Part shown: positions 12,295 through 14,697 of the stretch, in pieces
How positions within the stretch are numbered: position 1 is the stretch's first letter
Layout: every line of letters starts with the position of its first letter
Source of the DNA: a virus
Taxonomy: Duplodnaviria > Caudoviricetes
Virus record (IMG/VR): IMGVR_UViG_3300009155_000035
Strand: one strand, 5' to 3'
Length of the DNA stretch: 64,000 nt
Position numbers and translations under genes: made by a program
The notes under the pieces: generated by a model
What the model was told of the DNA's origin: nothing
Databases searched by the model: none
Seen by the model: only the letters and a program-made list of their open reading frames with translations

Positions 12295-12323
12295 TTGACT
12301 GTAAGTGACAATGGTGTTATACT
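12295..12323 (+). promoter_or_regulatory. sigma70 promoter P1 of the tRNA/ncRNA operon
   Basis: TTGACT-17-TATACT. Confidence 0.75.
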
Positions 12324-12396
12324 AGAGTTAAGTTAGAAGCATAAGTGTTCCTAATGTGCAACTGGAAAATGTTGTAAAAATACAACAAAAAAACAG

Positions 12397-12425
12397 TTGA
12401 CACAAAAAAACAAGTGTCGTACAAT
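12397..12425 (+). promoter_or_regulatory. sigma70 promoter P2 of the tRNA/ncRNA operon
   Basis: TTGACA-17-TACAAT preceded by an A-rich UP-element-like tract. Confidence 0.85.
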
Positions 12426-12435
12426 TGATACTTGC

Positions 12436-12463
12436 GCTGATAACTCAGCAATGTTCTTTAAAA
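12436..12463 (+). promoter_or_regulatory. boxB-like hairpin plus boxA-like antitermination site
   Basis: GCTGA-TAAC-TCAGC, then TGTTCTTTAAAA (rrn boxA consensus TGCTCTTTAACA). Confidence 0.6.
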
Positions 12464-12500
12464 ATTTGCATTTCATGTAGTGATCCCGGGCTTGCTCGGG

Positions 12501-12765
12501 CACTATATGTAAACACACTAAGGTTACCTACACTGTTAGGGGTGAACGAAGGGCGATTGCGTAGAAGAAATTCTCGGCCTTGATACCCATGAAGCAGGAA
12601 GCCCGAAATAGATACCTGAGCCGATACCAAAGGCAACGAGTGGTTGAAATAGGGAACAACTTCCGGGAATGCGACAGGCTAAACAGTAGGCAGTAATGAG
12701 AAAAAACGTAGGTCGCCAGGTGGTGCTGAGATTTATATCCTTCCTTAATGTGTTTTCATATAGTG
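12501..12765 (+). ncRNA. Candidate ~220-nt structured RNA enclosed by a 23-bp stem
   Basis: CACTATATGTAAACACACTAAGG (12501-12523) pairs with CCTTAATGTGTTTTCATATAGTG (12743-12765) with 2 mismatches; no convincing ORF. Confidence 0.55.
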
Positions 12766-12846: not shown

Positions 12847-12925
12847 AGTTTTGAGAGTCACATCGCCTGGACACTTCCCTCGGTGACGAAGCACTAGGTC
12901 CTGCAACCGTGACTCTCCTTTATTT

Positions 12926-13094: not shown

Positions 13095-13292
13095 ACGTTC
13101 CGGGTGTCTCCGGATAGTGTGACCCACACGATGAGAAGTAGTGTGACAACTACGGGTGGTAGTCTTCGAACCCAAAGGCCGCTGGCAATGCGAGAACGGT
13201 CCCTGTCGGGAAGCGGGTGGAAGGAGTGTGTGATGGGTATGATAGCGTCATATCTTGATACTCTATAATTACCGCCGGGGGATGCAGAGCAT
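13095..13292 (+). ncRNA. Candidate ~200-nt multi-hairpin RNA
   Basis: GC-rich run of hairpins (TCCGG/CCGGA, GTGTG/CACAC, GTAGT/ACTAC, TATGA/TCATA) directly after tRNA-Tyr. Confidence 0.45.
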
Positions 13293-13297
13293 TTTTG

Positions 13298-13455
13298 TTT
13301 TTATAGTCAAGCATCGATACAGGTATCGTTGTGGGACGCCACAACTATGCGGGCCTAACTGTGCGAGGAACAGGTCCTGACATAACTGCTATTCGCTTGT
13401 CAGAGGAAGCACCTTTGTTGACAAATCGGCATCTCTCGATGCTTGACTATAAAAA
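13298..13455 (+). ncRNA. Candidate RNA enclosed by a perfect 20-bp inverted repeat
   Basis: TTTTTATAGTCAAGCATCGA / TCGATGCTTGACTATAAAAA flanking ~118 nt with internal hairpins. Confidence 0.55.
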
Positions 13456-13544: not shown

Positions 13545-13645
13545 GGGAGAGTTGCTAATATTGGCCTTAGGGCGAGCCTTATAAACTCGTAAGCACTGTC
13601 TAGATAAGGCAGCGAATGTGGGTTCGATTCCCACCTCTCCTACCA
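13545..13645 (+). tRNA. Atypical tRNA with TAT anticodon (nominally Ile/AUA) and a long variable arm
   Basis: 7-bp acceptor GGGAGAG/CTCTCCT, canonical T-arm, loop CT-TAT-AA, extra arm CTGTCT..AGGCAG, A73, CCA; 101 nt. Confidence 0.75.
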
Positions 13646-13917: not shown

Positions 13918-14352
13918 ATGTTGCACTTAATCAAATCTGTTTCTGATTCGTTCGTTGAGTGTCTTAAGCAAGATCCTGTGCGCCCGCATATTCCTGAATC
14001 ATTGAGAGTTGGTAACAACCGCGATATCTTTGTGTCGCGAAAGGAAGATGCAGGTGCTCGAGCAGTTACTTGTGTAAGTTACCAACAACGCATCCCGGAA
14101 AGTGAAAATGAACTTTTCGAGGATACTGACACCCCCGAGGTTGTAGTTTTCTATACTATATGGAGCTATGAACCCGGTGCCGGTCGTGATTTAATCTTTG
14201 AGGCTCGAGACTGGATTCTAAAAAATCGCCCCGAGATCAAAAGATTTATAACCTTGAGTCCACCAACTGAAATGGCTCGAAGGTTTCACCTAAAGAATGG
14301 TGCTATAGTACATCGTGTCAATCAGAGCACAGTGAACTACGAGTACCTTTGA
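13918..14352 (+). CDS. Hypothetical protein, possibly GNAT-like fold
   Basis: ATG 13918 after AAGGA; VFYTIWSYEPGAGRDLI...TLSPPTEMARRFHLKNGA. Confidence 0.65.
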   Translation: MLHLIKSVSDSFVECLKQDPVRPHIPESLRVGNNRDIFVSRKEDAGARAVTCVSYQQRIPESENELFEDTDTPEVVVFYTIWSYEPGAGRDLIFEARDWILKNRPEIKRFITLSPPTEMARRFHLKNGAIVHRVNQSTVNYEYL

Positions 14353-14536: not shown

Positions 14537-14612
14537 GGGACTATAGCTCAGCCGGTAGAGCAGTGGACTTTTAATCCATTGGTCGCGAGTTCGAATCTCG
14601 CTGGTCCTACCA
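14537..14612 (+). tRNA. tRNA-Lys(TTT)
   Basis: Loop CT-TTT-AA; CCA. Confidence 0.93.
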
Positions 14613-14697
14613 TATAAAAACACATTACCAACGGTATCGCTTGTAGCAAAGCCCGTGCCAAAGTAGTCAGTCTAGGATAGTGTGTTTCTATATGGTA
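14608..14697 (+). ncRNA. Long-stem element closing a 52-nt loop
   Basis: TACCATATAAAAACACATT / AGTGTGTTTCTATATGGTA. Confidence 0.4.

Follow-up and report, generated by a model that had tools for sequence, protein, structure and literature searches.

A phage-specific family of structured non-coding RNAs with a long closing helix, represented in the tRNA array of a giant freshwater phage

The 64,000-nt DNA stretch of the IMG/VR record IMGVR_UViG_3300009155_000035 (Duplodnaviria; Caudoviricetes), referred to below as the window, originates from a giant freshwater phage and occurs in freshwater and lake runs. It harbors 27 tRNA genes recognized by ARAGORN and one more found by Rfam only, as well as a two-piece transfer-messenger RNA (tmRNA) of the betaproteobacterial type, which points to a host among the betaproteobacteria. 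The element described here occupies positions 12501-12765 on the + strand, between a leader with promoter-like and boxA-like sequences and the gene of tRNA-Asp(GUC). It is the gene of a structured non-coding RNA, roughly 230-265 nt in length, which belongs to a phage-specific family of ~190-275-nt RNAs that is new as far as Rfam 15 shows. Open reading frames (ORFs) over the region are limited to 52 aa (+ strand), 63 aa (- strand) and 112 aa (- strand), the last running through tRNA-Asp; being short or overlapping a tRNA, they agree with the statement of a preliminary description of this locus that no credible ORF is present.

The boundaries of the element are formed by the two arms of its closing helix, P1:

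12501-12523, + strand: 5' arm of P1 (inverted-repeat search; relatives)
12743-12765, + strand: 3' arm of P1 (inverted-repeat search; relatives)

The arms are 23 nt long and 91% complementary, with 219 nt between them (inverted-repeat search), and the mismatches are U12510.U12756 and C12518.A12748. P1 is present in all minimum-free-energy and centroid folds. The 23-bp bracketing stem with two mismatches, which was the starting point of the preliminary description, is thereby confirmed by the inverted-repeat search, by all folds and by the relatives described below. In about 70 distinct relatives the RNA is likewise closed at this site, by helices of 14-31 bp whose sequences differ and compensate, and therefore P1 is more than a chance complementarity. 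Its inner 12 bp covary in the family, with compensatory changes in 10 of the 12 pairs. P1 also has the length of a processing stem of the rRNA type, i.e. a helix of at least ~20 bp formed by the flanks of the product. Most relatives have the helix fitted between two tRNAs: it begins at the CCA end of the first and stops a few nucleotides short of the second; in many of them the 5' arm of P1 pairs the ACCA end of the upstream tRNA, and in many a tRNA starts 6-24 nt downstream of the trimmed helix. L086 and its near-identical stand-alone relatives have a -10-like box immediately before the 5' arm. The folding energy of the whole insert is no better than that of shuffled sequences (z = -1.12), which means that single-sequence folding says little beyond the closing stem.

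A second helix of this kind lies elsewhere in the window. Segments 14608-14627 and 14678-14697 form a 20-bp helix (90%) that begins with the CCA of tRNA-Lys and surrounds 50 nt of unrelated sequence; the arms match those of P1 at 15 of 20 positions (~75%), and a mismatch falls on the same tenth position. Since nearly the same helix surrounds another cargo, the closing helix is a reusable module.

Relatives of the RNA were reached by synteny with the protein encoded at 13918-14349, for which 80 phage loci were fetched, and then by a motif pattern. The protein is 144 aa long and its gene lies within the tRNA array; more than 860 relatives of it exist, with 55 invariant residues in 30 sequences, and it leaves just a faint trace in Pfam (PF05292); it is a conserved array-embedded protein. 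The SDR-like protein encoded upstream, when used as a query for related loci, gave no relatives. An nhmmer search of the 80 synteny loci with the window RNA gave no match either. The similarity is limited to short motifs, hence the relatives were found by eye and then by a pattern and a covariance model. The two closest loci have the same closing helix with compensating substitutions, as well as short shared blocks (GGUUACC, YAUGAA ~60 nt later, and GUAAUG) with unrelated sequence between them. A pattern scan of IMG/VR returned at least 118 stretches, and two scans with a longer second gap added more; the relatives in uncultivated phage contigs number more than 120.

The covariance model, R1, was built from 19 well-aligned members with the window RNA left out, and so the membership of the latter could be judged independently. 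R1 matches 12512-12754 of the window over its full length (model positions 1-186) with 67.8 bits and an E-value of 7.9e-16. The model recognizes 19 of the 80 synteny-anchored loci, 82 of 100 pattern loci and 19 of the first 100 long-gap loci listed, these 19 having a long P8; the long-gap scans gave mostly chance matches. R1 thus accepts true relatives and rejects chance matches of the pattern.

The family is confined to phages in the data covered. Five of five near-complete phage records (262-353 kb) contain exactly one copy per genome. Among bacterial and archaeal genomes, with at least 120 pattern matches, none of the 80 pattern loci listed passes R1, which does not prove that bacteria lack the RNA. 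In blastn searches of GenBank phages the window has no close relative; the region and representatives of types A and B (see below) gave tRNA matches only or none, and no cultivated phage with this RNA was found. The exact 18-mer AGGGGTGAACGAAGGGCG has one match in IMG/VR; it lies inside a coding region and was discarded as a chance occurrence. Rfam 15 offers no family for the insert, neither at the gathering threshold nor at E <= 10, and none for the relatives L087 and L095, in line with the proposal of the preliminary description that the RNA belongs to no known family.

About 80% of the copies lie within tRNA arrays, on the tRNA strand. The typical array copy directly follows tRNA-Glu, and the next tRNA (often Asp) is found 6-24 nt downstream. 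The stand-alone copies, ~15-20% of the total, are surrounded by small ORFs and lack a tRNA for kilobases around. The position first after the leader, which had been likened to the slot of 16S rRNA in an rrn operon, holds for the window, L002, L003 and L087, but it is one of several arrangements, most copies being located after tRNA-Glu or alone.

The structure of the family was derived by hand on the 19 sequences, with the window excluded, and the resulting fold is well supported. It is nested and is composed of P1, of a rod P1b (UUA/UAA)-P2-P3 with a 3-nt bulge and an asymmetric loop, and of two three-way junctions: one joins P3, the P4-P4b-P5 arm and the P8 arm, and the other joins P1, P1b and a 3' domain which ends in hairpin P7. 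In the 19-sequence alignment 90.9% of the cells are paired, vs 39-47% with the partners slid, and 33 of 49 pairs show compensatory changes. For 71 distinct sequences the values rise to 93.7% of the cells and 42 of 49 pairs, with a covariation score of 0.61 vs 0.06-0.08 for slid partners; this larger alignment was fitted to R1, and for this reason the slid control is quoted. P3 is paired in 100% of the cells, and one U.G pair in it is invariant (71/71), which shows that the RNA is read from the + strand. In P2 and in P3 four of five pairs each show compensatory changes. Invariant or near-invariant elements are GGUUACC, UAGG, G-CG (P5 loop), AUGAA, GUAAUG and GACG (P7 loop). The window copy has GGUUACC at 12522-12528, UAGG at 12537-12540, AUGAA at 12589-12593 and GUAAUG at 12693-12698, and the spacing from GGUUAC to YAUGAA is 60 nt, as in the family. 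Between the arms of P1 the window RNA is organized as follows:

12524-12526, 12527-12531 and 12533-12537, + strand: 5' strands of P1b (UUA), P2 (CCUAC) and P3 (CUGUU), from the R1 alignment
12538-12587, + strand: junction J3/4 (AGG) and the P4-P5 arm, from the alignment of seven subtype-C members
12541-12544 with 12584-12587, + strand: C-stem of P4, GGUG with UACC (subtype-C alignment)
12545-12547, + strand: bulge AAC of P4 (subtype-C alignment)
12548-12549 with 12582-12583, + strand: tandem G.A/A.G of P4 (subtype-C alignment)
12550-12554 with 12577-12581, + strand: NC stem of P4 (subtype-C alignment)
12563-12574, + strand: P5 hairpin AGAA-GAAA-UUCU (subtype-C alignment)
12588-12594, + strand: J4/8, CAUGAAG, in which AUGAA is invariant in the family
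12595-12601 with 12660-12666, + strand: P8 arm, CAGGAAG with CUUCCGG (R1 alignment)
12667-12699, + strand: J8/3 (GAAUGC) and the 3' strands (R1 alignment)
12673-12677, + strand: 3' strand of P3, GACAG (R1 alignment)
12678-12685, + strand: J3/2
12686-12690, + strand: 3' strand of P2, GUAGG, followed by the bulge CAG
12694-12696, + strand: 3' strand of P1b, UAA, within the invariant GUAAUG(A) at 12693-12699
12700-12742, + strand: 3' domain, with candidate helix GUAGGUC 12708-12714/GAUUUAU 12730-12736 and conserved loop ..CAGGUGGUGCUGA

The family fold also decides between the four inner pairings listed in the preliminary description. The pairing GGAAG/CTTCC (12597-12601 with 12660-12664) is conserved and agrees with P8, but the other three are not family helices: ACTGTT/AACAGT competes with the family pairing CUGUU 12533-12537/GACAG 12673-12677; ACCTAC/GTAGGT takes a wrong partner (12709-12714), the family pairing being CCUAC 12527-12531 with GUAGG 12686-12690; TCGGC/GCCGA is broken, without compensation, in the close relatives L287 and L288. 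In P8, which covaries across the family, the second pair (A.G) is conserved and non-Watson-Crick. In the window P8 carries a branched 58-nt insertion (12602-12659) where most relatives have a GNRA tetraloop; the insertion is ~95% conserved in L287, L288, L276 and in RNA contigs of runs X21 and X22.

Three subtypes of the RNA can be distinguished. Subtypes A (GUAAUGA) and B (GUAAUGU) have two hairpins with GACG-type loops (P5 and P7), the P7 hairpin lying where subtype C has its 3'-domain helix, and a mostly short P8, which in subtype A is capped by a GNRA tetraloop. Subtype C comprises the window copy, L287, L288, L276, L226, L263, L224 and L212. It is characterized by a kink-turn-like P4, a plain P5 hairpin with a stable tetraloop (GAAA in the window), a short 3'-domain helix closing a ..GUGGUG.UGA loop and, in most members, the large branched P8 insertion. 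The GACG-type loops, near-invariant in A and B, are missing from the window and likewise from L287, L288, L226, L263, L224 and L212, so they are a trait of subtypes and not of the whole family; across subtypes the two loops are gained or lost together. In the window copy a kink-turn-like P4, a GGUGGUG loop and an enlarged P8 stand in for them. The 3'-domain helix of subtype C was compared by eye in L287/L288 (GUAAACU/AGUUUAU), L226 (GGACC/GGUCU) and L263.

The layout of P4 in seven sequences (C-stem, 3-nt bulge, tandem G.A/A.G, NC stem) looks like a kink-turn when set beside the published consensus of this motif. GGGGUGAACGAA and GAUACC are invariant in the seven subtype-C members, and the NC stem covaries among them (AGGGC/GCCUU, AGGAGU/ACUCCG, AGGGUG/CGCCCG).

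The region is present in environmental RNA as a discrete stretch and is transcribed in nature. RNA run X2 yielded a 229-nt contig identical to 12521-12749 with a depth of 13.5, while the adjoining bins have depths of 0-0.5 and the upstream gene 2.7. In runs X21 and X22, which belong to other studies, contigs ~95% identical to 12575-12705 and of the L288 type have depths of 64 and 126, and the X22 contig starts ~3 nt into GGUUAC. Stretches without RNA cover (e.g. 12404-12454 and 12863-12913) were not used as evidence. Of the proposals in the preliminary description, the existence of a discrete transcript is supported by the 229-nt lake contig, whose extent nearly coincides with the bracketed insert; contigs cannot prove the ends or the strand of an RNA.

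The sequence around the element resembles the start of an operon:

12295-12323, + strand: predicted sigma70-like promoter, TTGACT-17-TATACT (consensus scan, 10/12 matches)
12397-12425, + strand: predicted sigma70-like promoter, TTGACA-17-TACAAT (consensus scan, 11/12 matches)
12436-12449, + strand: leader hairpin GCUGA-UAAC-UCAGC, seen by eye
12452-12464, + strand: boxA-like 13-mer UGUUCUUUAAAAA, a single exact copy within the window
12485-12500, + strand: CUUG-capped leader hairpin, seen by eye, which abuts the closing helix
12771-12846, + strand: tRNA-Asp(GUC) (ARAGORN), 5 nt past the 3' arm of the helix

Transcription from the tandem candidate promoters (12295-12425) would give a transcript that begins with the stem-closed RNA and continues into the tRNAs. 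The 13-mer UGUUCUUUAAAAA resembles the boxA of E. coli rrn operons, UGCUCUUUAACAA. It precedes tRNA arrays, as an exact copy, in at least six relatives (L002, L009, L017, L034, L037 and L045), always a few dozen nucleotides downstream of a promoter-like site. Its conservation in this position suggests that antitermination of the Nus type, provided by the host, serves the tRNA operons of these phages. A hairpin of other sequence occupies the site of the CUUG-capped one in L002 (846-862) and in L003 (31-45, AACCC-GCAA-GGGUU).

Two ways of release of the RNA can be considered. Cutting by RNase III within P1 is plausible, the helix being long enough. RNA contigs of two studies begin at ~12521-12525, i.e. 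at the inner end of the 5' arm, although contigs do not define ends; these starts hint weakly at a removal of the outer P1 segment, as would be expected of RNase III. The opposite reading, in which the mature RNA retains P1 to clamp its ends, is suggested by the tRNA ends which bound the helix and by the -10-like box upstream of it in the stand-alone copies that were read. With such boundaries no RNase III would be needed, as the termini could arise through RNase P, through 3' maturation of tRNAs or as the ends of the primary transcript. In the window, RNase P processing of tRNA-Asp at its 5' end would fix where the RNA stops on the 3' side.

Taken together, these data lead us to favor, with somewhat better than even confidence, the reading that 12501-12765 is a single-copy gene of a stable structured non-coding RNA of a phage-specific family, which is released from the operon and serves in trans as a platform or decoy for a protein. 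Transcription would start at the tandem promoters and pass the boxA-type leader, and the RNA would come first among the products of the tRNA operon. Endonucleolytic cuts in P1 or at its foot would free it, the candidate cutters being RNase III, acting in the helix, and/or RNase P, acting on the 5' end of tRNA-Asp and followed by trimming to the helix. P1 would then protect both ends against exonucleases, and the conserved junction core with the exposed loops would act in trans, most likely as a platform or decoy for a protein of translation or tRNA metabolism during infection. The stand-alone copies, which have a -10-like box just upstream in the cases that were read, speak for a trans-acting product.

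Several points weigh against this reading. The protein-binding role in trans is deduced from architecture and context. Around stand-alone copies, Pfam searches of the neighbouring ORFs revealed no partner for RNA binding or processing and yielded just a GP88-family protein ~1.3 kb off. The window copy has no GACG loops, so either these loops are dispensable or the subtypes differ in their partner. The RNA contigs give neither true ends nor strand, and DNA carry-over into an RNA library is possible, although the uneven cover argues against it. As to novelty, 8,495 unnamed candidate RNAs were predicted from IMG/VR (Fremin and Bhatt 2023, PMC10690425), and the family may be among them.

The main rival is an assembly made of RNA only, in which the RNA forms a homo-oligomer (cage, ring or filament) without protein, like the phage-borne ROOL, GOLLD and manA. 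The duplicated loops (two GACG in A and B), the GNRA tetraloop and the kink-turn modules would then be intermolecular contacts. Such an assembly would fit the abundance of the RNA in metatranscriptomes and the co-presence or co-absence of the two loop motifs across subtypes. The habitat is the same as that of ROOL and GOLLD, which occur in phages, often near tRNA islands (PMC12286853), and it has been reported that RNAs shorter than 200 nt, such as manA, can form 60-mers and that kink-turns can drive filaments (bioRxiv 10.64898/2026.07.01.735769). However, GACG is not self-complementary, no conserved complementary partner for it was found in the family, and the free swapping of modules between subtypes is harder to fit with a fixed quaternary lattice. 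We regard this possibility as unlikely.

Somewhat less probable still is a cis-acting element of the operon, whose fold would organize transcription or processing of the tRNA precursor, for instance as a spacer which recruits antitermination or processing factors or insulates the folding of tRNAs, the excised piece being a by-product. The location directly after the boxA-like leader in the window, L002, L003 and L087 is in favor of it, as are the many relatives in which P1 pairs with the CCA of the preceding tRNA and the use of nearly the same helix around the unrelated insert at 14608-14697. Yet ~15-20% of the copies stand alone, and those that were read have a -10-like box just upstream. The strongest conservation is seen in unpaired junction letters and not in the helix, there is a single copy per genome whatever the size of the array, and it is the excised part that accumulates in the RNA data.

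A more far-reaching scheme, which we rank as doubtful to the same extent as the cis-acting element, is an RNA-only machine for the tRNA pool of the phage. It would be a self-assembling particle, or a ribozyme or decoy that guards or processes phage tRNAs against host anticodon nucleases, and the exchange of modules among subtypes would mirror an arms race between phage and host.

A catalytic or ligand-sensing RNA, with the invariant junction letters as an active site or a small-molecule pocket, is quite improbable. Ribozymes and aptamers typically have such a compact multi-junction core, with unpaired positions that do not vary and tetraloops at the periphery, and a switch is conceivable in subtype C, where CUGUU has two possible partners (GACAG 12673-12677 or AACAG 12683-12687). 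But the RNA is without an expression platform or a regulated downstream ORF, it has no likeness to a ribozyme or riboswitch of Rfam at E <= 10, and no conserved cleavage-site signature was recognized. Resemblances to the T-loops of the RNase P S-domain, SRP Alu UGUAAU, the 16S 3' end, the hammerhead and box C/D were considered and dropped, as they had no Rfam support and the motifs are not kept in the family alignment.

A divergent version of a known cellular RNA (6S, Y RNA/YrlA, SRP, an RNase P fragment or T4 species 1/2) missed by the models can be practically set aside: the long helix of the 5' and 3' ends does recall 6S and Y RNAs and the place among tRNAs recalls T4 rnaC and rnaD, but all three subtypes have no match in Rfam 15 at E <= 10, R1 gives at most 11.4 bits on the T4 tRNA region and finds AT-rich hairpins only, T4 rnaC is tRNA-like with a GGGUUCGAAUCCCGG T-arm which is not in the window RNA, and an architecture with two three-way junctions fits none of the candidate families.

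Further RNAs and repeats were noticed next to the element and in its relatives. The spacer between tRNA-Asp and tRNA-Glu (12847-12925) contains a small stem-closed RNA, GAGAGUCAC...GUGACUCUC; its core CAUCGCCUGGA.AC...GCACU.GGUCCUGCAAC is kept in L002 (1412-1470) and L003 (560-625), and its closing stem is compensated. A non-coding block of ~200 nt after tRNA-Tyr (13095-13292) is almost identical in L002 (1651-1850) and L003 (852-1065) and is by far the most abundant part of the examined stretch in three lake metatranscriptomes: the summed contig depth at 13169-13219 reaches 2,875 in X22 and ~525-550 in X21 and X24. In Rfam this block has only sub-threshold hits (sX4, 25.8 bits, and tmRNA_permuted, 19.7 bits), both running in from tRNA-Tyr. 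Between this RNA and tRNA-Cys a perfect 20-bp inverted repeat surrounds 118 nt (13298-13455); the sequence at this place is different in L002 and L003, and an X2 contig (13271-13549, depth 2.7) reads through it. At 13545-13642 Rfam finds a tRNA (40.5 bits) missed by ARAGORN, with a 32-nt insertion in the D-loop region, and L006 has a 92-nt tRNA-Ile(UAU) at the corresponding site after tRNA-Cys. A second family of stem-closed RNAs is present in L002 (1100-1245), L017 (548-668) and L034 (1395-1530) and not in the window. Its motif is GUAAGCC...GAGUAACUAUG..AUAAACGGUA...UUCCGUUGA.GCAUAGCA.AUAGU, and it is found after the GGUUAC/GUAAUG RNA or after tRNA-Glu.

Giant phages carry near-complete sets of tRNAs, tmRNA and other parts of translation. 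To the question of what further means they use for the takeover of translation, the present family adds a concrete new object: a single-copy, strongly covarying RNA with a defined fold, three subtypes, more than 120 natural variants and evidence of expression in lakes. Its size of ~200 nt puts structure determination and pull-downs within reach. The closing helix, which occurs twice in the window with different cargo, suggests a general way to package extra RNAs into tRNA-type transcripts.

The family joins ROOL, GOLLD, manA and the stable RNAs of T4 as unexplained RNAs placed among phage tRNAs. ROOL and GOLLD (Rfam; Weinberg et al. 2009/2017) are the closest by habitat, being structured and abundant non-coding RNAs of phages and prophages, often in or beside tRNA islands. 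They have been described as phage RNAs near tRNA islands, of unknown function, and were shown to self-assemble (Kretsch et al. 2025, PMC12286853). They differ in size and topology, ROOL having ~580 nt and GOLLD ~800 nt with many pseudoknots, whereas the window family has 190-275 nt and a nested fold; models of ROOL, GOLLD, manA and the other families of Rfam 15 do not match the window insert or relatives L087 and L095. T4 rnaC (species 1) and rnaD (species 2) are likewise small stable RNAs in a phage tRNA cluster, on the tRNA strand and abutting a tRNA, and are presumably matured with the tRNAs. In contrast to the window RNA, they have 139 and 119 nt and no long closing helix of the P1 type, and rnaC is tRNA-like. 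With filters off, R1 scores at best 11.4 bits on T4 70,499-72,699, at an AT-rich palindrome, and at most 4.2 bits in rnaC/rnaD. Y RNAs (bacterial YrlA) and 6S RNA, which sequester proteins, resemble the window RNA in that their 5' and 3' ends pair in a long helix and in being abundant, trans-acting products, as is proposed here for the window RNA. Phage-encoded Y-like RNAs exist. However, the window RNA is without the tRNA-like module of YrlA and without the central bubble of 6S, and it has no Rfam match.

Finally, the window resembles an rrn operon in that tandem promoters and a boxA-type leader precede a product whose flanks pair over more than 20 bp and which would be excised from a polycistronic precursor. 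The difference is that tRNAs, or the transcript's own ends, delimit the helix in most relatives, and the position after the leader is not conserved. The analogy with rrn operons is thus a fair one for how this RNA may be made, but not for what it is.
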